Below, piece by piece: positions 3,652 to 60,599 of a stretch of 64,000 nt of DNA; the first letter of the stretch is position 1; every line of letters begins with the position of its first letter. Origin of the DNA: an uncultured bacterium. Lineage in GTDB: Bacteria > Zhuqueibacterota > QNDG01 > DTFT01. Position numbers and translations under genes: made by a program. Where the stretch lies: the NCBI GenBank assembly GCA_963736115.1, contig CAVTNR010000019.1, forward strand, positions 14,914 to 78,913, in the 5' to 3' direction. The notes below the pieces were generated by a model. The model was not told the origin of the DNA and did not search any database. It saw nothing but the letters and a program-made list of their open reading frames with translations.

Positions 3652-3670
3652 AATCCGCAGTAATAACTTA

Positions 3671-3776
3671 CGCATAGCGCATAGGGCATAGCGCAGAGCG
3701 CAACAGCGCAAAGTGGTATTTATTCGCTATGCGCTGTGCCCTGTGCATTTTTAGCGCTTTGCGCGATGCACGATGC
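3671..3776. repeat. 7-nt-periodic imperfect inverted repeat (CGCATAG-type heptads)
   Basis: Left arm cgcatag cgcatag ggcatag cgcagag cgcaaca (3671-3712). Right arm cgctatg cgctgtg ccctgtg ca (3725-3747). The reverse complement of the right arm matches GCATAGGGCATAGCGCAGAGCG at 19/22 positions. Confidence 0.5.
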
Positions 3777-9779: not shown

Positions 9780-10628
9780 ATGAATATTCGAGAACTGTCC
9801 ATTCAGACCGTGACCGACACTGTGGCACGGTTATGCATGGAAGCCAATTTTTTTCTCGGCGAGGATATACTCGCGAAACTCAGGGAATGCCTGGAACGGG
9901 AAGAATCCCCCCTGGGTAAAAGTGTATTGGAGCAGGTTCTCCGGAATGCGGCTGTCGCCTGCGAGAATAAAGTGGCCATGTGTCAGGACACCGGTTACAC
10001 CGTCCTGTTTATCGAGATCGGCCAGGACGTTCATTTCACGGGCGGCGGACTCATGGAAGCGGTTCAGGAAGGCGTACGCCGGGCCACCCAATCCGGCCCG
10101 CTCCGCAAATCCGTGGTCCGCGACCCTTTGCGCAGGGTCAATACCGGGGACAACACACCGGCAATCGTGCACACGGACATCGTCCCGGGTGATCGTGTCC
10201 GTCTGATCGTCGCGCCCAAGGGCGGCGGCAGTGAAAACATGAGTGAAGTGAAAATGATGGCCCCATCCGCAGGAAGGGAAGGAGTCATGGATTTCGTCAC
10301 GGACCGGGTGAGGCGGTCCGGTCCGAATCCGTGCCCGCCCGTGATCGTGGGCGTGGGACTGGGCGGGACATTCGAGAAATGCGCATTTCTCGCCAAGAAG
10401 TCCCTGCTCCGAACGCTCGGAGAACCGAATCCGGATCCCTATTATGCGGAGATGGAATCGGAACTGCTGGAGCGCATCAACGCCCTCGGAATCGGCCCCA
10501 TGGGATACGGGGGCCGCTGTACGGCTCTGGCCGTTCATATTGAGGCGCATCCGTGCCACATCGCCAGCCTGCCCGCGGCCGTGAACATTCAATGCCACGC
10601 GGCCCGGCACAAGGAGGCCGTGCTGTGA
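9780..10628 (+). CDS. Class I (Fe-S) fumarate/tartrate hydratase, alpha subunit
   Basis: ...KVAMCQDTGYTVLFIEIGQDV ... TPAIVHTDIVPG ... APKGGGSENMS ... GVGLGGTFE... matches the Fe-S hydro-lyase alpha domain. ATG 9780 chosen. Confidence 0.85.
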   Translation: MNIRELSIQTVTDTVARLCMEANFFLGEDILAKLRECLEREESPLGKSVLEQVLRNAAVACENKVAMCQDTGYTVLFIEIGQDVHFTGGGLMEAVQEGVRRATQSGPLRKSVVRDPLRRVNTGDNTPAIVHTDIVPGDRVRLIVAPKGGGSENMSEVKMMAPSAGREGVMDFVTDRVRRSGPNPCPPVIVGVGLGGTFEKCAFLAKKSLLRTLGEPNPDPYYAEMESELLERINALGIGPMGYGGRCTALAVHIEAHPCHIASLPAAVNIQCHAARHKEAVL

Positions 10629-11191
10629 GCGGTCTTTCCAAGCGGATCCGCACGCCGCTGGGAGAGTCCGAAACAGCGGGCCTGCGGAGCGGGGACCTCG
10701 TCCTGCTCTCGGGCACGGTGTACACGGCCCGCGACGCCGCGCATCAGCGCATGGCTGAAAAGATCCGGCTGGACGAGCCCCTGCCGTTCGGACTGGCCGG
10801 ACAGGTGCTGTTCTACGCGGGTCCCGTACCCGCGGCCCCGGGCCGCGTCATCGGATCCATCGGCCCCACGTCGAGCTACCGTATGGATCCGTACACCCTT
10901 CCCCTGCTCGAGCGCGGGCTGAAAGGCATGATCGGAAAGGGCAACCGGTCCCCCGAGATCGTGGAGGCGATGAGGCGCTGCGGCGCTGTGTATTTCGCCG
11001 CAACCGGGGGAGCCGCGGCGCTTTACGCCGGAACCGTGAAGCGGTCCGTGCTGATCGCGTTCGACGACCTCGGGCCCGAGGCCGTGTACAGGCTCGAGGT
11101 GGAAAACATGCCGCTGGTCGTTGTCAATGACTGCCAGGGCGGGGATTTGTATCGGGAAGGGGTGGAGAAATATAAAGTTCATAGTTCATAG
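10625..11191 (+). CDS. Class I fumarate/tartrate hydratase, beta subunit
   Basis: GTGA overlap with the alpha gene. LLSGTVYTARDAAHQRM ... FYAGPVP ... GPTSSYRMDPY ... GMIGKGNRS ... YFAATGGAAAL. The last codons (KVHSS*) run into a GTTCATA heptad array. Confidence 0.85.
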   Translation: MSGLSKRIRTPLGESETAGLRSGDLVLLSGTVYTARDAAHQRMAEKIRLDEPLPFGLAGQVLFYAGPVPAAPGRVIGSIGPTSSYRMDPYTLPLLERGLKGMIGKGNRSPEIVEAMRRCGAVYFAATGGAAALYAGTVKRSVLIAFDDLGPEAVYRLEVENMPLVVVNDCQGGDLYREGVEKYKVHSS

Positions 11192-11343
11192 TTCATGGTT
11201 CATAGTTGGAAACAGAAAGCGGGAAATATTTTCAATGAACCATGAACGACGAACTCTATCCTGTCCGAAAGGCCCGCGAAAAGAGGCGGGCCATTTCGGA
11301 CCTACAATGCGCTATGAACTCGAAACCATGAACTATGAACCAT
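11177..11343. repeat. GTTCATR heptad inverted array (left arm 11177-11207; right-arm pieces 11235-11255 and 11312-11343) with a REP hairpin nested in the right arm
   Basis: gttcata gttcata gttcatg gttcata ... atgaac catgaac gacgaac ... [REP] ... ctatgaac tcgaaac catgaac tatgaac. Confidence 0.75.
11263..11305 (+). repeat. REP hairpin copy (GTCCGAAAG...CATTTCGGACCTAC family)
   Basis: GTCCGAAAGGCCCGCgaaaagagGCGGGCCATTTCGGACCTAC. Confidence 0.75.
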
Positions 11344-11351
11344 TGAGACCC

Positions 11352-25131: not shown

Positions 25132-25866
25132 ATGCAGGAGAAAGAGCTGGAGCAGACACTGGTGCTCATCAAGCCCGACGCATTGAAGAACTCTTTGACC
25201 GGATACGTGCTTTCGCAATTGTCCGAGTTCCACACCGGCCTGCGCTTCGCGGGAGCGAAAATCGTGCAGGTGAGCAAAATGCTCGCTGAGGAGCATTATG
25301 CCGAGCACCGCGGCAAGTTGTTCTTCCCCGCGCTCCTTGAATACCTCACGGGATGCGTCCACTACCCGGATGCGCCGGCCCTCAGGCGCGTCGTCGCGTT
25401 CGTGTATCAGGGGCCGGGCGCGATCCAGAAGATCCGGGACCTCGCGGGCCCGACCAATCCGCACGTCGCGCGCGAGAAGAAACCCGGGTGCGTCCGGGCG
25501 CTGGGCACCCTGGTACCCCTCAAGTCCACGGACGGACAGACCATCGGCGAGCGCATGGACAACCTGATCCACGCCTCGGCAACGGCGCCCGAGGCCGAGC
25601 GGGAGATCAAGCTGTGGTTCAAGCCCAACGACATACCGCCGCCCATGCGTGAATACAAGTCCGTACAGTGTGATGAGCATTTCTATTTCAGGGACGGCCG
25701 ACTGTACCGGAAACACGAAACGGGTTCCGTCTGCCTGCTCGCGCCCGGAGACGCGGTGTGGACCTCGGATCTGGAGGCACTGCACAAAATCGCCGAAGGC
25801 CGTGAGGCGCACTGCACACTGCAGGCCGTTGCCGCGAAGTATCTCATCAATGAGACGAGGGAATAG
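25132..25866 (+). CDS. ndk: Divergent nucleoside-diphosphate kinase-like protein with C-terminal extension
   Basis: TLVLIKPDAL ... AEEHYAEHRGKLFFPALLEYLTG ... IRDLAGPTNP ... NLIHASA (canonical N-x-x-H-G-S-D altered to HASA). 244 aa versus the usual roughly 140-150. Confidence 0.65.
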   Translation: MQEKELEQTLVLIKPDALKNSLTGYVLSQLSEFHTGLRFAGAKIVQVSKMLAEEHYAEHRGKLFFPALLEYLTGCVHYPDAPALRRVVAFVYQGPGAIQKIRDLAGPTNPHVAREKKPGCVRALGTLVPLKSTDGQTIGERMDNLIHASATAPEAEREIKLWFKPNDIPPPMREYKSVQCDEHFYFRDGRLYRKHETGSVCLLAPGDAVWTSDLEALHKIAEGREAHCTLQAVAAKYLINETRE

Positions 25867-25873
25867 AATAACA

Positions 25874-26008
25874 GTTCATGGTTCATAGTTCATAGTTCAT
25901 AAAAAAAGCTTCCGGGAATCTGAAATATCCGGGAGCTTTTTCTGTTTTTCTTATGAACCATGAACTATGAACTATGAAATATGAACTATGAACTATGAAC
26001 TATGAACT
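25874..26008. repeat. GTTCATR heptad inverted array bracketing a terminator hairpin
   Basis: Left arm gttcatg gttcata gttcata gttcat (25874-25900). Right arm has eight units tatgaac catgaac tatgaac tatgaaa tatgaac x4 (25953-26008). Confidence 0.8.
25901..25949. terminator. Bidirectional rho-independent terminator between convergent ndk-like and DinB genes
   Basis: AAAAAAAGCTTCCGG-gaatctgaaatat-CCGGGAGCTTTTTCTGTTTTT. Confidence 0.6.
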
Positions 26009-26015
26009 TCTCTCC

Positions 26016-26543
26016 TCACCTCCCCGCAATCCTTTCCGCAGCCTGCTCGAGATGCATTTTCTGATGAGAAACGTACGCGGGGATCAGTTCCCTGAGCGTC
26101 ACCGGAGATTCCGAGCCTTCGGTCCATGCGTGATTCAGGGCATCCGGCCGCACCCGTCGGAGCAAACGCACGATGTGCAGGTTCAATGCGGACCACAGGT
26201 CAATGAGACGGATCCAGTCCCCGTCCCGGTACCCTTGAATCGCCACCCATTCCTCATTGTGCCGGGTGTAGTCCGGAAAAGACAGTTCTTTGGCATATTG
26301 AAGGCGGACGAAGCGCTGGATGTTGTTCCCAGCCGAGTCCGTGAGATGGCCGATGATTTCCTTGACGGACCACCGTTCCTCGCTCTCCTTCGCGGAGACG
26401 CCGCTATCGGGCCATCCGTACAGGACCGGCCGCCAATGACCGACCAGTTCCTCGAGTTCATCCGCGGTTTTCAGCACGTTGTCCATTTTTACGCGAATCC
26501 TCCGATGATCGGACGCATCACGGCCTGAGCAGTAGGTCCGCAA
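26016..26543 (-). CDS. DinB-family (DinB_2) protein
   Basis: ...WSVKEIIGHLTDSAGNNIQRF ... SHQKMHLEQA. A four-helix His-triad style pattern. 175 aa. Confidence 0.65.
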   Translation of the reverse strand: MRTYCSGRDASDHRRIRVKMDNVLKTADELEELVGHWRPVLYGWPDSGVSAKESEERWSVKEIIGHLTDSAGNNIQRFVRLQYAKELSFPDYTRHNEEWVAIQGYRDGDWIRLIDLWSALNLHIVRLLRRVRPDALNHAWTEGSESPVTLRELIPAYVSHQKMHLEQAAERIAGR

Positions 26544-34583: not shown

Positions 34584-34743
34584 CAATGGAACACGGATCG
34601 CGCGGATTTGCGCGGATAAAGAGGTTGGAATAGGGTATTTCACTGATTGGAATTGCCGGTGGGTCCGCATGAGGCGGTTCCCCTGACGGACTCCGTGTTC
34701 AGGGTCTAACAGACTCCCATCGTTCTTATGATATTTTTCAACA

Positions 34744-34791
34744 CGGAACCCGGAACTCGGAACCCGGAACTTCCTGAACCATGAACCATGA
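34744..34791. repeat. 7-nt-periodic array (CGGAACY heptads merging into CATGAAC heptads)
   Basis: cggaacc cggaact cggaacc cggaact tcctgaac catgaac catga, directly upstream of etfB. Confidence 0.6.
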
Positions 34792-34803
34792 TCTGAGGCA
34801 TCC

Positions 34804-35595
34804 ATGAACCTGATCGTCTGCGTCAAGCAGGTCCCGGACACCACGGACGTTAAAATCGACCCCGAGACCAACACGCTCGTGCGCCAGGGCGTGGCTGCCG
34901 TTCTCAATCCCTTTGACGCGTATGCGGTCGAAGAGGCGGTGCGCATCCGTGAAAAACACGGTGGAAAGGTGACGGCGCTCACCATGGGGCCTCCCCAGGC
35001 CGTCCAGGTCCTCCGCGACGCGATCGCGGTGGGCGCGGACGAGGGCATTCTGCTGTCCGACCGCGCTTTCGCGGGAGCCGACACGCTCGCCACTTCGAAC
35101 ACCCTGGCCCAGGCCATACGTAAAATCGGCGCCTTCGACCTGATCCTGTGCGGCAAGCAGGCCGTGGACGGGGACACCGCGCAGGTGGGGCCGGGCATCG
35201 CGGCTCTGCTCGACATCCCCCAGATCATTTTCGTGCGCGCGATACGCGAGCTGACGGCGGATAAAATCGTCGCTGAGCGGATGACCGAAGACGGCTTCGA
35301 CGTGGTGGAGTCGTCCCTGCCCTGCCTGATTTCCGTGGTCAAGGGCATCAATGAACCCCGCCTGCCCTCCCTGCGGGGCGTCATGACCTCCAAGAAAGCC
35401 GTCATCCCCACCTGGACCGTTCAGGACACGGGTGCGGATCCGGAACGCATCGGGCTCAAGGGTTCGCCGACTTACGTCCATAAAATATTCACGCCCCCGG
35501 CCCGGCCCGGCGGTCGCAGATTCGAGGGTGAAACCGCCCAGGTCGTCGAGGCTTTCGTGAAGGCGGCGGTCGAGGACCAGCTGTTCGCGCCCTGA
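34804..35595 (+). CDS. etfB: Electron transfer flavoprotein beta subunit
   Basis: MNLIVCVKQVPDTTDVKID ... NPFDAYAVEEAVR ... ILCGKQAVDGDTAQVGP. Confidence 0.9.
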   Translation: MNLIVCVKQVPDTTDVKIDPETNTLVRQGVAAVLNPFDAYAVEEAVRIREKHGGKVTALTMGPPQAVQVLRDAIAVGADEGILLSDRAFAGADTLATSNTLAQAIRKIGAFDLILCGKQAVDGDTAQVGPGIAALLDIPQIIFVRAIRELTADKIVAERMTEDGFDVVESSLPCLISVVKGINEPRLPSLRGVMTSKKAVIPTWTVQDTGADPERIGLKGSPTYVHKIFTPPARPGGRRFEGETAQVVEAFVKAAVEDQLFAP

Positions 35596-42436: not shown

Positions 42437-42474
42437 GTAGGTCCGATATGCCGAGCGTAGCGAGGCTATCGGAC
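42437..42474 (-). repeat. REP hairpin copy (inverted orientation, begins GTAG)
   Basis: GTAGGTCCGATATGCCGAGCGtaGCGAGGCTATCGGAC. Its reverse complement differs from the copy at 43139-43176 at 3 positions, two of which form a compensatory A/T pair. Confidence 0.8.
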
Positions 42475-42479
42475 ATCAA

Positions 42480-42989
42480 TTATTCCGGATTCATCCCGCG
42501 TATGCCGGGGATTTCCTTCCAACCCCATCCGAACTCGTAATGACCTTGCTTCACGAAATCAATATAACTGGAATGGGGCCATCGCTCCGGTTTGTCTGTC
42601 AATCCGTGTTTGACCGGGTTGAAATGAATGTAATCCAGATGTCTGTTTATGTCTTCATGATTTCGGATCACATGGTCGTAGAAACGATGTTGGGCGAGAG
42701 TCACGGGAGTCCTGATCTGATGATGACTCTTGAAATTGCATGTAAAATTTCGGCGAAGAGATTGAATGATAACGGAGAGTGCGGATTGTTCCGGTTCCAA
42801 AAGAAAGTGAAAATGATCAGGCAGAATGACATAGGCATATAACCGGTGGGGATAATGTTTGCGGACTCTGGAGAGGGTGTCCATCAGGATGCCCGAATTG
42901 ACCGGATCGGAGAAGATGGGTTGTCGATCATGGTTGACGCACGTTATGAAATACACCGCTCCGATTATATGGTAACGGCGAATATCCAT
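42480..42989 (-). CDS. REP-associated tyrosine transposase (RAYT; IS200/IS605 TnpA-like, Y1 HUH)
   Basis: 169 aa. HUH motif in ILPDHFHFLLEP. Catalytic-Tyr region RHLDYIHFNPVKHGL. RFYDHVIRN. Immediately flanked by REP hairpins. Confidence 0.85.
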   Translation of the reverse strand: MDIRRYHIIGAVYFITCVNHDRQPIFSDPVNSGILMDTLSRVRKHYPHRLYAYVILPDHFHFLLEPEQSALSVIIQSLRRNFTCNFKSHHQIRTPVTLAQHRFYDHVIRNHEDINRHLDYIHFNPVKHGLTDKPERWPHSSYIDFVKQGHYEFGWGWKEIPGIRGMNPE

Positions 42990-43002
42990 GTGTCTTTCTA
43001 TT

Positions 43003-43046
43003 GTCCGAAAGCCTCGCCCCTGCGGGGCTCGGCATTTCGGACCTAG
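43003..43046 (+). repeat. REP hairpin copy
   Basis: GTCCGAAAGCCTCGCCCCtgcGGGGCTCGGCATTTCGGACCTAG. Confidence 0.8.
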
Positions 43047-43074
43047 AAATTATTTAATGATAAACGTTCTTTTT

Positions 43075-43121
43075 GTAGGTCCGATATGCCCGGCATGTCT
43101 TTTCATGCCGGGCTATCGGAC
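43075..43121 (-). repeat. REP hairpin copy (inverted orientation)
   Basis: GTAGGTCCGATATGCCCGGCATGtcttttCATGCCGGGCTATCGGAC. Forms a REPIN-like doublet with 43139-43176. Confidence 0.8.
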
Positions 43122-43138
43122 GTTTATTTCGGGGATTT

Positions 43139-43176
43139 GTCCGAAAGCCTCGCTTCGCTCGGCATTTCGGACCTAC
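43139..43176 (+). repeat. REP hairpin copy
   Basis: GTCCGAAAGCCTCGCttcGCTCGGCATTTCGGACCTAC. Overlaps the GH17 stop codon. Confidence 0.8.
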
Positions 43177-44180
43177 ATTTCATAGGACGGGGACGTCGGT
43201 TCGTCCGTGACCCTCTCCGGATACCACTCCCGCATCGCCTTCTTGGCCTTGCGGTCCTCGGAAAAAAGGCCCCAGTGCCCCTCGGTGCCAGTGCCCTTCC
43301 ATGGCTCGTCGAATGCCTCGAAATAGAAAACATGGACTCCGTTCGCCTTCGCCCATTCGTTGAGTTCGCGGAAGTACCGCTCCTGCTTGTCCTCGTCCCC
43401 GGCTTTCGGCGCGTGCGCCGGCCCCACCGTGTAGGTCGCCCAGCCCGCCTCGCCGATGACGAGCGTTATTCCCGGGAGCGCTTTTTGGACGCTTTTCACG
43501 TGGCGCACGGTGTGGGTCAGGGCGCTGTCGATGTCCGATCCGCCCCACATCGGGTAGGTGTGCACGGCCACGAAATCCACATGCTGCGCCAGCGACGCTC
43601 CGTCCGGCTCACGCCAGAACGTGAAATCGTCGTCCACGGTCACGGGAACGGAAACCGAATCGCGGACGCGATCCACGGCCCGGATCGCGTCCGTTAGCGT
43701 CATCCGGTGGTCCGACCAGGAAACCAGGATTTCATTGCCCACGCTGACCGCGGCGACGACATCCGGGTATTGATTGGCGAGCCGGATGCAGTTTTGGATC
43801 TGCTCCTCATTTTCTATTTCCTTGCCTGCGGACCCGCTCAGCCAGGCGCCGAGCATGACCCGGATCGGGATTTTATTTGTCCGTATCACCTGCAGGACAT
43901 CCTCACTGTGGCGGTCCGAACCATAGGTCCGGATCATCCGCCAGTGACGCTCAAGAATGCGCATGTCCTCCAATATTTCCGCCTGAGACGGATATGTCTG
44001 CGTCTGCGGGCTCTGGCCGGCGCGGTATCCTGAATAGCAGATCATGTGGCCGGCCCATTTCTGGGCGGTGAGGTCGATGTTCCGGGGACGCGGTCCGCAG
44101 CCCGCACCGACGAGGCCGAGCAGTAGCAAGCCGACCGCGGCGTAGGCCCGGCTGTGGAAGGATGTCCGTTCTTGGGTCAT
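43173..44180 (-). CDS. Glycoside hydrolase family 17-like beta-1,3-glucanase/transglycosylase lipoprotein
   Basis: Lipobox LVGAGCG. (beta/alpha)8 pattern with AVSVGNEILV (acid/base Glu region) and VIGEAGWAT (nucleophile Glu region). FYFEAFDEPWK. Confidence 0.75.
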   Translation of the reverse strand: MTQERTSFHSRAYAAVGLLLLGLVGAGCGPRPRNIDLTAQKWAGHMICYSGYRAGQSPQTQTYPSQAEILEDMRILERHWRMIRTYGSDRHSEDVLQVIRTNKIPIRVMLGAWLSGSAGKEIENEEQIQNCIRLANQYPDVVAAVSVGNEILVSWSDHRMTLTDAIRAVDRVRDSVSVPVTVDDDFTFWREPDGASLAQHVDFVAVHTYPMWGGSDIDSALTHTVRHVKSVQKALPGITLVIGEAGWATYTVGPAHAPKAGDEDKQERYFRELNEWAKANGVHVFYFEAFDEPWKGTGTEGHWGLFSEDRKAKKAMREWYPERVTDEPTSPSYEM

Positions 44181-58400: not shown

Positions 58401-58920
58401 CGGTTCTGAACAGGGGCTCGGACGGCGCCCTCCTGCCAAGCTGGGTCATCAAGCTCGCAACCAGCGCGGACGATTCGGTCCGCTCGAATCCGGCGGAAGG
58501 GATACCCTGGCCGTGCGCCTCAGCAAGCCTTTCCTGGCGGCGGATATTTTCGAATTCACCATGAAGAGCGAATCGATTGACGCGGAGGCGGTGAAGGATG
58601 CGATGGGCCGCATCCAGGTGGTGCCGAATCCGTACATCGTGGCCAACTCCTGGGAAGCCCAGAATCCCTACGCGAACGGACGCGGGCCGAGGGAAATACA
58701 CTTCACTCACCTTCCGGCGGTTTGCACGATCAAGATCTTCAATCTGCGCGGCCAGATGATCCGAACCCTCGAGCACGACTCGCCGGCCATCGCGGACGGC
58801 ACCGAGATCTGGGACATGCAGACGAAGGACAACCTCGACGTCGCCTACGGTGTGTACATCTATCACATCAACGCCGGGAAGACCGGGCAGAAGATCGGGA
58901 AGTTCGCGATCGTCAAATAA
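55491..58920 (+). pseudogene. About 1140-aa secreted Asp-rich/FN3-like protein with T9SS-type C-terminal sorting domain; about 10 frameshifts
   Basis: Signal peptide MKKTTIGWIAALFLGVAVRAVAQD. The coherent sequence hops between frames (ORFs 55491, 56578, 56897, 57328, 57650, 58513 and unlisted pieces). Ca-binding-like DDNLNGIIDENNG and DDGIDNDGDWDILTDDVGMDG. RVTLYWDDVAEGS ... GYRIYRS. C-terminus IQVVPNPY ... CTIKIFNLRGQMIRTL ... GVYIYHINAG ... FAIVK. Confidence 0.7.
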
Positions 58921-58925
58921 AAAAA

Positions 58926-59037
58926 GTTCATAGTTCATGGTTCATAGTTCATAGTTGGAAGAGAATTAAGAACAGTTATTAAATGAAGCGACAAAACACC
59001 TTTTTTGACTATGAACTATGAACTATCAACCATGAAC
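58926..59037. repeat. GTTCATR heptad inverted array
   Basis: Left arm gttcata gttcatg gttcata gttcata gtt (58926-58956). Right arm ctatgaac tatgaac tatcaac catgaac (59009-59037). Confidence 0.8.
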
Positions 59038-59059
59038 TGCCAATAAAAGGAGACCCGAA

Positions 59060-60115
59060 ATGAAGAAACTTTTACTGATAGGGATGGCCGTGCTCCTGTC
59101 CTTCCCGGCATACGGCCGGGAGGTGACGAAGGCGGGGACGACGTCGGCGGCGTTTCTGAACATCGACCAGGGCGCTCGTGGGGTCGGGATGGGGAGCGCG
59201 TTCGTGTCGGTGGTGGACGACATCAGCGGGGTGTACTGGAATCCGGCTGGGATCGCCCGGATGAAGGGCGGCCAGGCGTCGTTCAGCAACACGCAGTGGA
59301 TCGCGGACATCGCGTACAACCACGCGGCGGTAGCGGTTCCGGTGGGTGGCGTGGGGGTTCTGGGCGTGAGCGCTCAGTTCCTGACGATGGGGGACATGGA
59401 CCGGACGACGACGATGGAGCCGGAGGGGACCGGGGAGACGTTTTCGGCCGGGAGCTACGCGTTCGCGCTGAGCTACGCCCGGAATCTGACGGACCGGTTT
59501 TCGATCGGGTTCAACGCGAAGTACGTTCAGGAGAAGATCTTTCACATGAACGCGCGGGGCATGGCGTTCGACGTGGGGACGCTGTTCGACACCCAGCTGG
59601 AGGGACTTCGTCTGGGGATGAGCATATCGAATTACGGAACGAAGATGCAGATGGGCGGCCAGGACGCGCTGGTTCAGAAGGACATCGACGCGACGGTGTC
59701 TGGGAACAACCCGAACATCAACGCGAATCTTCAGACGGACAAGTGGGACATGCCGCTTTTGTTCCGTGTGGGGATGAGCGTGGACGTTCTGAAGGGTCTG
59801 TACGACAGCAATCTGACGCTGGCGGTGGACGCGCTTCATCCGAACGACGACGTGGAGAGCGTGAACGTGGGCGCGGAGTACGTGTTTCACCGGATGGTGG
59901 CTCTGCGGGCGGGATACAAGTCGATGTTCGCGAAGGACAGCGAGGAGGGTCTGACGTTCGGCGGGGGCCTGCAGTACCGGATGTTCGGAACATCGTCCCT
60001 GATGCTGGACTACGCGTGGGCGGATTTCGGGGTGCTGAAGGAGATCCAGAAGTTCTCGATCGGGATGACTTCTGAAAAGTTCATAGTTGATAGTTCATGG
60101 TTCATAGAAAAATGA
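59060..60115 (+). CDS. PorV/PorQ-family outer-membrane beta-barrel protein
   Basis: Signal peptide. TTSAAFLNIDQGARGVGMGSAFVSVVDDISGVYWNPAGIA N-terminal signature. Alternating beta-strand pattern. The last 10 codons (IVDSSWFIEK) are encoded by a heptad array. Confidence 0.7.
   Translation: MKKLLLIGMAVLLSFPAYGREVTKAGTTSAAFLNIDQGARGVGMGSAFVSVVDDISGVYWNPAGIARMKGGQASFSNTQWIADIAYNHAAVAVPVGGVGVLGVSAQFLTMGDMDRTTTMEPEGTGETFSAGSYAFALSYARNLTDRFSIGFNAKYVQEKIFHMNARGMAFDVGTLFDTQLEGLRLGMSISNYGTKMQMGGQDALVQKDIDATVSGNNPNINANLQTDKWDMPLLFRVGMSVDVLKGLYDSNLTLAVDALHPNDDVESVNVGAEYVFHRMVALRAGYKSMFAKDSEEGLTFGGGLQYRMFGTSSLMLDYAWADFGVLKEIQKFSIGMTSEKFIVDSSWFIEK
60079..60107. repeat. GTTCATR heptad array, single arm
   Basis: gttcata gttgata gttcatg gttcata g. 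This is an inverted copy of 59009-59037 and shares the rare tatCaac/gttGata unit. Confidence 0.75.
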
Positions 60116-60136
60116 GTGTTTCGGGATAAGGGCTGG

Positions 60137-60167
60137 GTGTCATCCCCGAGCTGTTCTATCGGGGATC
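60137..60167. repeat. TGTCATCCCCG hairpin repeat, copy 2
   Basis: TGTCATCCCCGAgctgttctaTCGGGGATCC. Confidence 0.55.
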
Positions 60168-60201
60168 CAGGGTGGGGTGGACAATCCCGTGATGGGTTAT
60201 C

Positions 60202-60242
60202 AAAAAGACCTGAAAGGTTCGGAAGACCTTTCAGGTCTTTTT
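60202..60242. terminator. Bidirectional rho-independent terminator after the PorV-like gene
   Basis: AAAAAGACCTGAAAGGT-tcggaag-ACCTTTCAGGTCTTTTT. Confidence 0.75.
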
Positions 60243-60599
60243 CGAAGCGCCGATAGGACGATGAGAGAAAATGATTGATGGAAATGAGGGACGGATTCGT
60301 GGTATTTACATTAATAAAAATTAAGTACCTTCATAGTGATTCGCAAAATTTATTCATGATTGTAGCAATTGTTTAAGCAAAAAAATATCATGCGTTTAGG
60401 GCGTTTTATGTGATTTCATCTCAATCCGGCATCAGGGTCTCAGGAAAATCTATACTCAGGAACCCTGGACGATAAAAGCAGTAAAATTAGATAGAATATC
60501 GCTTAAAAAGTTGTTACATTGGTTTGCTTCCGGTAACAATTCCGAAAAGAACAGTCTATATTCAACCTGATCAATCATTTAACAGCAACGGGAAAAACC

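Follow-up and report, generated by a model that had tools for sequence, protein, structure and literature searches.

What are the arrays of seven-nucleotide units that face each other at the ends of genes in this genome, and how do they come to be there? The window analysed here is a stretch of 64,000 nucleotides (contig C19:14914-78913) of a 31-contig, 3.34-Mb assembly with roughly 60% G+C, which we call G000. A sequence-only reading of the window had reported four phased arrays of GTTCATR and YATGAAC units and two arrays of variant sequence. From the recurrence of the same unit, with the same R/Y position, it had supposed a family that might be mobile or protein-bound, or a slippery hairpin able to shift register. 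We located the four arrays at 11177, 25874, 58926 and 60079, and both variants proved real.

The element at 25874-26008 lies between two convergent genes. An NDK-domain gene (25132-25866, plus strand) ends in a TAG stop at 25864-25866, and the first unit of the left arm (GTTCATG GTTCATA GTTCATA GTTCATA, four units; 25874-25901, plus strand) is found 7 nt past it. The right arm (25952-26007, minus strand) has eight YATGAAC units, one of them degenerate (TATGAAA), and ends 8 nt short of the stop codon (26016-26018) of a DinB_2-family gene (26016-26543, minus strand). The 50-nt spacer between the arms (25902-25951) consists of an A-tract, a GC-rich hairpin (gcttccggg...cccgggagc) and a T-tract. 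By its predicted fold it is a bidirectional intrinsic terminator between the convergent genes, in line with the earlier suggestion that one array brackets an ordinary terminator hairpin.

The other copies of the window show how closely the arrays are entangled with coding sequences. The left arm at 11177-11204 (four units, plus strand) holds the stop of a fumarase C-terminal-domain ORF (10553-11191), which ends in KVHSS. Its right arm (11241-11340, minus strand), directly 5' of an nfnA-like ORF, is split into two pieces, CATGAAC GACGAAC (11241-11254, minus strand) and TATGAAC TCGAAAC CATGAAC TATGAAC (11313-11340, minus strand), which are parted by an inserted REP of the GTAGGTCC family (about 11262-11309); REPs are sometimes found inside heptad elements, as they are here. 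At 58926-58953 (plus strand), a left arm of four units lies 5 nt past the stop of the ORF at 58513-58920. It is followed by an AT-rich spacer unique to this copy (58954-59009; gttggaagag...ccttttttgac), whose only homologues are spacers beside a paralogous PorV-like locus on contig C27, and by a right arm of four units (59010-59037, minus strand; TATGAAC TATGAAC TATCAAC CATGAAC) placed 22 nt 5' of the start (59060) of a PorV-like ORF. This ORF (59060-60115, plus strand; stop at 60113-60115), whose matches to the PorV and FadL profiles are weak, reads through a solo left arm (60079-60106, plus strand; GTTCATA GTTGATA GTTCATG GTTCATA), so that the array is translated as its C-terminal tail and the protein ends in KFIVDSSWFIEK. 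We found no partner arm for this array before the next gene (60600).

The overlap of arrays with gene ends that had been read from the sequence is thus real for both the fumarase and the PorV-like ORFs, and annotators should treat with caution the stop codons, C-terminal tails and false ATG starts that lie inside arrays. Among the variants, the one at 34743-34793 (minus strand) is a solo right arm of a nested, two-dialect kind: units of the CGGAACY type (ACGGAAC CCGGAAC TCGGAAC CCGGAAC) merge into remnants of the first type (CCTGAAC CATGAAC CATGATC), and the array stops 10 nt ahead of an ATG at 34804. The pair at 3671-3776, 3' of an ORF ending near 3652, has CGCATAG units facing units of the CTATGCG type and belongs to a minor family without the GTTC core. 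Such minor heptad families are also present in G000 as a whole.

To count the arrays genome-wide, as the sequence-only reading had proposed, we defined a chain as at least three GTTC (or GAAC) cores at exact 7-nt spacing. G000 has 268 such chains (135 on the plus and 133 on the minus strand), against 0-5 for unrelated control 4-mers, and they fall into 161 loci. Period-7 arrays number 196 and period-8 arrays 3. Of the 31 contigs, 21 carry arrays, as do three further species-level assemblies from the genus, so the arrays are confined neither to the window nor to a single assembly. They are unevenly spread over the contigs of G000 (chi-square p = 9e-8) and are densest on contig C5. The unit counts (GTTCATA 392, GTTCATG 212, GTTCCGG 106, GTTCCGA 85, GTTCATT 48, GTTCAAA 30) indicate a conserved block, RGTTC, followed by a variable dinucleotide that is AT, CG or AA. 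The three types with the GTTC core and R at position 7, hereafter ATR, CGR and AAR, make up 838 of about 1,080 units. The family is therefore recurrent, with a fixed unit and a fixed position for the R/Y wobble.

The elements share a strict anatomy. Neighbouring arrays are in the order (GTTCNNR)n then (YNNGAAC)n 87 times ('+-') and in the reverse order ('-+') twice. Arms have three to five units, four being the commonest, and the mode of the spacer length is 41-43 nt. The consensus reads, from left to right: a stop codon, 0-10 nt, about four GTTCNNR units, a spacer that starts with GTTAAAARARAA and finishes with TTYTTTTTYAAC round a centre that is unique to each copy (38% G+C), and about four YNNGAAC units. 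The dinucleotide type is identical on both arms in 85 of 87 pairs. Placed in register, the arms are 86% Watson-Crick paired (1156/1344 positions), with mismatches mainly at the R/Y position. Complementarity at this wobble position is not kept in register: in left arms the series is mostly AGAA, in right arms variously TCTT, TTCT or TTTC. Degenerate units are located at the edges of the arrays. The expectation that the two arms can pair is borne out by the predicted folds of the window element RNAs (-44 to -62 kcal/mol, z -8.5 to -12). A CRISPR array, which would have direct repeats of 24-48 nt with several unique spacers among them, can be rejected, since the arms are inverted, the units are 7 nt long and there is one spacer per locus. 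The sequence-only reading had come to the same conclusion on the ground that there are no unique spacers; a single spacer between inverted arms, without direct repeats, is indeed what we see, but every pair has its own unique spacer centre.

We then related the arrays to genes, using our own ORF-based gene calls, which are crude, yet reliable for stop codons. The 161 loci include 107 co-directional, 30 convergent and 12 divergent junctions, and 11 loci called intragenic, mostly because of ORF miscalls. For arms facing a stop codon, the median distance to it is 6 nt; 86 of the 129 such arms lie no more than 10 nt away, and about 19 have the stop within their first units. The arms that face a start codon are at a median distance of 40 nt. 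Among the 34 arms at co-directional junctions that leave 30 nt or more of slack, 18 were within 10 nt of the stop, while uniform placement would give 4.9. The elements are thus mainly intergenic, near gene ends, and obey a sense-strand rule after stops, as do heptanucleotide repeats. This anchoring to stops is the rule reported for the GGGAATC repeats of Xanthomonas (PMC4692102). Genes bracketed by elements are in excess (14 vs 3.1 expected), an excess confounded by the regional clustering of the elements, and for this reason we rejected the idea that bracketing serves to pair the 5' and 3' ends of mRNAs.

A position directly after genes, an excess of convergent junctions (30, more than their expected share), a very stable predicted hairpin and the A- and T-rich flanks of many copies are features one would expect if the outer heptad hairpin were itself a bidirectional intrinsic terminator or attenuator. 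The details of the flanks are at odds with this. At co-directional junctions the A-run lies upstream, in the gap that separates the stop from the arm; a T-rich right flank is found at 4 of 25 '++' junctions and an A-rich left flank at 7 of 27 '--' junctions. Convergent genes have instead a separate, classical terminator within the spacer: such bidirectional terminators are found in about 8-10 of the 67 short spacers, mostly at convergent junctions. A plain intrinsic terminator, whose stem runs straight into a U-tract on the transcript, was rejected because such a tract is rare here, and we regard any terminator or attenuator role of the outer hairpin as very improbable.

The elements could also be cognates of repeats with a known partner gene. 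Three Y1_Tnp/RAYT genes, of which one lies in the window (42480-42989; NF047646, 133.9 bits), are flanked by REPs of the GTAGGTCC, GGTAGCCGCAGCC and GGGAGTGCCGCG types, each gene by its own classical family, and there are no heptad arrays within 3 kb of any of the three. We thus rejected a RAYT-linked REP, in agreement with the earlier statement that the arrays are not REP-like in sequence. A scan of the window with Rfam gave no family at the gathering score; the element itself, under permissive settings, matched nothing but hairpins of miRNA precursors, all below threshold.

The four sister species of the genus allow the history of these loci to be followed. We counted exact triple units on both strands, for ATR, CGR and, within the genus only, AAR. 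The counts for ATR, CGR and AAR are, respectively, 182, 33 and 11 in G000; 56, 157 and 17 in G001; 13, 34 and 158 in G002; and 0, 38 and 113 in G003. Each species thus has its own dominant 'dialect'. Across the 27 genomes of other genera of the order, we found no ATR triple and a single CGR triple, in the sister genus; the other 26 have neither. The search of other genomes of the lineage that had been suggested at the outset therefore places the arrays in three further species of one genus. At the level of strains, a look-up of exact proteins gave no other contig; the relatives of the NDK-domain gene in metagenomes are 66-80% identical, belong to other lineages and nearly all lack heptads.

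We compared 25 junctions of G000 (24 plus that of the window element) with those of G001 and G003. About 19-21 of the first 24 retain an element in G001 and in G003; at some junctions, one of the species has none. At about 20 of the 25, at least two species use different unit types. Over G000, G001 and G003 together, the two arms are nonetheless of matching type in 43 of 43 readable pairs, and the number of units at a shared junction varies by species (e.g., 3 vs 4, 4 vs 7). The window element illustrates these changes, its arms being ATR in G000, AAA in G003, CGR in G001 and CGG in G002. Spacer homology tracks arm type: between species with one type at a junction it is strong (z 14-113), and where the types differ there is usually none. 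Some junctions kept their interior beneath switched arms. The signal is clear at junctions 5 (z 27) and 11 (z 9.8) and weaker at that of the window element (z 4.4), where G003 has a terminator-like hairpin in the equivalent position between arms of another type. Remnants with two dialects were found in the window (34743-34793), at C30:35460 and C14:51453 in G000, and at junctions 14 and 16 in G003. These comparisons show that both types of change occur, i.e., the replacement of whole elements and the rewriting of both arms in place.

These patterns bear on the question of mobility. If the elements were a MITE or REPIN family whose copies are moved whole by a transposase from another locus of the genome, be it of the RAYT (IS200-like) or another type, this would account for the terminal inverted arms, for a copy number that varies widely among sister species, for the nested and two-dialect remnants, for the clustering on certain contigs and for the junctions that are empty in one species. 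It would leave unexplained that target-site duplications are absent in 72 of 76 elements, a proportion equal to that of the shuffled control, that spacer centres are specific to each copy and share no 8-mers beyond paralogues, that the three RAYT genes have REP families of their own, and that most junctions are occupied in all species examined. Above all, at some junctions the arms changed round a vertically inherited interior, and the insertion of whole elements cannot yield that. We rejected a MITE given the lack of target-site duplications and of an interior common to the copies, and we see a slim chance for any scheme in which a transposase moves the element as a unit. The suggestion of a mobile element thus holds as far as copy number and unit type vary among sister species and nested remnants exist; it does not fit the lack of target-site duplications, the unique spacers and the sharing of most sites.

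The other suggestion, that of a protein-bound element, would mean that an oligomerising protein binds the arrays as double-stranded DNA and that they act as operators or architectural sites. The omega protein of pSM19035, of the ribbon-helix-helix type, binds runs of direct and inverted heptads, and one could think of such a protein or of a nucleoid-associated one. The conserved 5-nt core (RGTTC) with its 2-nt variable gap and strict 7-bp period, the strict head-to-head orientation and the arms of about four units would suit this role, and the dialects of the species could mirror co-evolution with the binding protein. A protein that reads only the core needs, however, no uniform and arm-complementary dinucleotide, such as is found in 85 of 87 pairs within G000 and in 43 of 43 across species. 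Moreover, the arrays are placed after stops and not at promoters, divergent junctions being only 12 of the 161 loci, and no candidate for the binding protein was identified. We give this explanation little credence.

One element of G000 encloses a gene. On contig C5, a gene matching PF05635, here called IVP (127908-128225), sits exactly between the arrays at 127815-127842 and 128309-128336, which are 466 nt apart. The protein matches PF05635 with 121 bits and TIGR02436 with 116 bits, and its closest solved structure is PDB 2GSC (from Xanthomonas, with five chains deposited). The element has GTTCATR arms and the same inner borders (GTTAAAG...TTCCAAC) as other elements. PF05635 is found in the loop of this element and of its orthologues; it is absent from the copies in the window and from the other roughly 160 loci. 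To our knowledge, IVP is not a known recombinase or nuclease. Its match to Avd is of 33 bits, below the cut-off of 80 bits, and we found no PF00078 in any of the genus's four genomes; we thus rejected a retroelement of the DGR type (Avd plus reverse transcriptase).

The association of IVP with heptads recurs beyond this locus. We found at least 117 loci with (GTTCATR)3 outside the lineage, in Cyanobacteria, Bacteroidota and other phyla (one genome per species). They were chosen solely for their GTTCATR arrays, and three of the 117 have an IVP gene exactly between facing GTTCATR arms (in MAGs of Chitinophagales, Flavitalea and Mucilaginibacter). Most of these loci are one-way arrays among many other heptamer units, and some are facing pairs. 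Within the order, every one of the 31 genomes has PF05635 genes. Of some 26 IVP loci examined in other genera, about 14 have an ORF immediately flanked by 7- or 8-nt arrays, each with its own unit. G000 has a second PF05635 paralogue (C9:146352-146885) that lacks such arms and is followed 3' by an octamer array, (ACGTTNNN)9. Only one heptad-armed IVP was found per genome.

The enclosed gene evolves fast, and its arms follow the dialects in part. Identity between G003 and G000 is 58.6% for the IVP protein, against 89% and 95% for the genes on either side. The syntenic IVP elements of G003 and G001 have CGR arms. In G000, a divergent IVP with ATR arms resides in an ATR-dominant genome, and in G001, another allele with CGR arms resides in a CGR-dominant one. 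The match between arm type and dominant dialect does not extend to G003, where AAR dominates and the IVP element is CGR-armed. An ATR-armed IVP was not found in the assembly of G001, although ATR elements are present there. Furthermore, 27 of the 31 genomes with PF05635 are essentially devoid of ATR and CGR arrays, so the gene alone does not cause the expansion. A literature search found no paper that describes GTTCATR arrays or connects PF05635 to dispersed heptamers. As far as such searches show, there is also no earlier description of dialects that switch at fixed junctions, of arms matched in type or of an enclosed IVP gene that diverges so fast.

These observations raise the hypothesis that IVP genes and heptad-armed foldbacks form a replicator of 'one gene plus many miniature copies', akin to RAYT-REPIN and chemically different from it. 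The IVP allele would set the dialect that is copied or kept, and an undescribed mechanism would rewrite, in place, the two arms that flank an existing intergenic segment. We advance this reading tentatively, as possible.

Alternatively, the elements could be passive arrays of the microsatellite kind, made by replication slippage and template switching at quasi-palindromes, with no trans-acting factor, mobility or function. This is consistent with the interspecific differences in unit number at one junction (3 vs 4, 4 vs 7), the uniform arms with degenerate units at their edges, the lack of target-site duplications and the finding of many-unit heptamer arrays across phyla. It is also consistent with the pairing of the arms: on the sense strand of co-directional junctions there are 56 G.U and 56 A.C pairs, an equality expected from a symmetric process at the level of DNA, and which indicates no strand-specific signature of selection on RNA pairing. 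Independent drift predicts many types of units, however, and three account for 838 of about 1,080. Nor does slippage predict that each species has its own dominant type over more than 100 loci, the '+-' orientation (87:2), the anchoring to stops or the recurring association with PF05635. We therefore consider purely passive arrays unlikely.

To the explanation we favour we assign a probability of about 50%. The elements would be foldbacks with heptanucleotide arms, a lineage-specific expansion of the known bacterial class of heptamer repeats with a build like that of the S23p/IVP intervening sequences (IVSs). They would be essentially selfish or neutral DNA that persists at gene junctions. In read-through transcripts, RNase III, which is encoded by G000, would cut the 28-38-bp duplex formed by the arms, by analogy with the stems of IVSs, so that the insert would do little harm. 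Arms would stay uniform through slippage inside each array and through inter-arm templating, and a trans-acting factor, for which the enclosed IVP protein is the obvious candidate, would bias the dialect that spreads in a genome. RNase III needs roughly 22 bp, and the fewest whole heptads above this minimum amount to 28 bp; this is a possible reason for the preference for four units across heptamer families. Since the present unit cannot form G-quadruplexes, the preference is not based on them here. Some observations count against this explanation. Among them are, from the results above, the equal numbers of G.U and A.C pairs, the single heptad-armed IVP per genome, the CGR-armed IVP of the AAR-dominant G003 and the wide occurrence of PF05635 in genomes with no such expansion. 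Solo arms exist (60079-60106 and 34743-34793), and the switching of both arms in situ round a conserved interior has no demonstrated mechanism. In addition, where a terminator lies inside the spacer at convergent junctions, most transcripts would hold one arm only.

How do these elements compare with known systems? Heptanucleotide repeats have been recorded since 1990, when the STRR repeats of Cyanobacteria were reportedly described by Mazel and colleagues, and we know of no mechanism or function for them. The present elements are built alike, with 7-nt units placed head to tail, at least three per array, in dispersed intergenic arrays at many loci, with a preference for about four units and an abundance specific to lineages. 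The occurrence of GTTCATR arrays in other phyla also places the family in this class, which includes the GGGAATC/GGGGAYT repeats of Xanthomonas and Nostoc (PMC4692102) and the TAACTGA repeats of Beggiatoaceae, Cyanobacteria and some Bacteroidetes (PMC4679880). The sequence-only reading had recognised no named element; the arrays do belong to a described class, that of bacterial heptanucleotide tandem repeats, and hence are not categorically new. They differ from the rest of the class in being strictly facing, complementary pairs round a unique spacer, and in having three GTTC-core dialects that take one another's place at junctions common to sister species. They also lack the potential for G-quadruplexes, which were proposed to explain the preference for four units in GGGAATC repeats.

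The second relative is the S23p/IVP type of IVS, which in Coxiella burnetii has a 28-bp terminal stem, tandem heptamers that vary between strains, and excision by RNase III, and which is also found in Leptospira and Salmonella (PMC4990558). The terminal inverted repeats of our elements, about 4 x 7 nt, match this stem of ~28 bp; tandem heptamers are common to both, and so, for the C5 element and its orthologues, is a PF05635 ORF in the loop. The IVSs are held to be selfish elements with no known means of moving. They reside in helix 25 or 45 of the 23S rRNA, whereas all copies described here lie between, or at the ends of, protein-coding ORFs, and more than 150 of them have no ORF. Excision by RNase III was demonstrated for the IVSs; for the heptad elements we infer it.

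The likeness to REP/BIME and REPIN-RAYT systems is one of ecology: extragenic palindromes just past stops and in operon junctions, which persist for long at extragenic sites and have species-specific master sequences. The organisation as one gene plus many miniature copies may be shared with REPIN-RAYT. The arms are nevertheless tandem heptads and not imperfect palindromes of 20-40 nt, and the candidate partner is a four-helix-bundle protein in place of an HUH tyrosine transposase. Uptake sequences (DUS/USS) are single 10-12-mers with a conserved core, often in inverted pairs behind genes, and with dialects between species. The heptad elements resemble them in their short conserved-core motif, in the inverted pairs behind genes and in the dialects of sister species; they differ in being tandem arrays, and nothing here bears on competence.

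The genus thus offers an unusually clean comparison, with four sister species, shared junctions, differing dialects and co-varying arms, and it has allowed us to argue against reverse transcription, RAYT transposition and target-duplicating transposition as sources of the elements. If the replicator reading is true, a 35-year-old puzzle, that of the heptamer repeats (STRR and relatives), gains a gene and a tractable comparison of four species. If the link to IVP holds, these would be a new kind of selfish element; if it does not, they are still a useful marker for fast concerted evolution. The comparison connects the heptamer repeats with the intervening sequences of 23S rRNA, which are no better explained, and makes an old question testable.

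The duplication of the PorV-like gene region (window 58926-60243) on contig C27 (C27:129207-130594 and C27:138921-139033) takes in the gene, the flanking heptad elements, the spacer and the downstream terminator. Spacers resemble one another only among these paralogous PorV-like loci, in the window and on C27. Heptad units also intrude on the reading of gene ends: ORF callers take in-frame ATG codons within YATGAAC units as starts (window 11329-11346, and start-facing arms genome-wide, with recorded distances of -6 and -13), and GTTCATAG contributes TAG stops. Automated calls of gene ends beside heptad arrays are thus unreliable.

A direct double array of CGR units is present in two copies on contig C22 (C22:60632-60701 and C22:61163-61232). 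Each consists of 4 + 4 units separated by a 14-nt gap and is followed by the motif gaaaatgattcgggggg.gtgtcat.cccgtt.aaacg; by our own gene calling, the surrounding region is a single long ORF. At the junction C8:238726, the orthologous position in the sister species G001 and G003 carries an insert of ~500 nt with a small ORF, bordered by inverted GCTCCCCGAGCGGAGTCGAGGGG repeats and adjoining the left heptad arm, that is absent from the genome under study.

The second PF05635 paralogue (C9:146150-146885; orthologues L239, L240 and L241 in sister genomes) is kept in all four species of the genus compared. Short repeats rich in RNE/RND form its N-terminal extension, and ~150 nt downstream lies an octamer array of ACGTTNNN (~9 units), which precedes an ABC-transporter-like gene. 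A third PF05635 gene, L242 in G001 (G001:C127:100-720), is divergent and is flanked by facing arrays of a different heptad family, ATTGNNG/GATCAAC-like ('gagatctcagatcaacgattgcagattgaag'). Fragments of this family occur in spacers of G003.

The RAYT gene of the window (42480-42989, minus strand; NF047646, 133.9 bits) has copies of the classical REP/REPIN family GTAGGTCCGAWATGCC...GGCATWTCGGACCTAC on either side (region 42438-43190); genome-wide, the family's 10-mer core is present 56 times. Inserted copies of the family sometimes interrupt heptad elements. Outside the window, two Y1_Tnp/RAYT-like genes (C2:71517-71777 and C17:75072-75362) are flanked by REP families of their own, GGTAGCCGCAGCCTTTAGGCTGCG and GGGAGTGCCGCGCCCCAxCGCGGC, respectively. 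With three RAYT-type genes, each flanked by a different REP family, the genome thus holds three parallel REP-RAYT systems.
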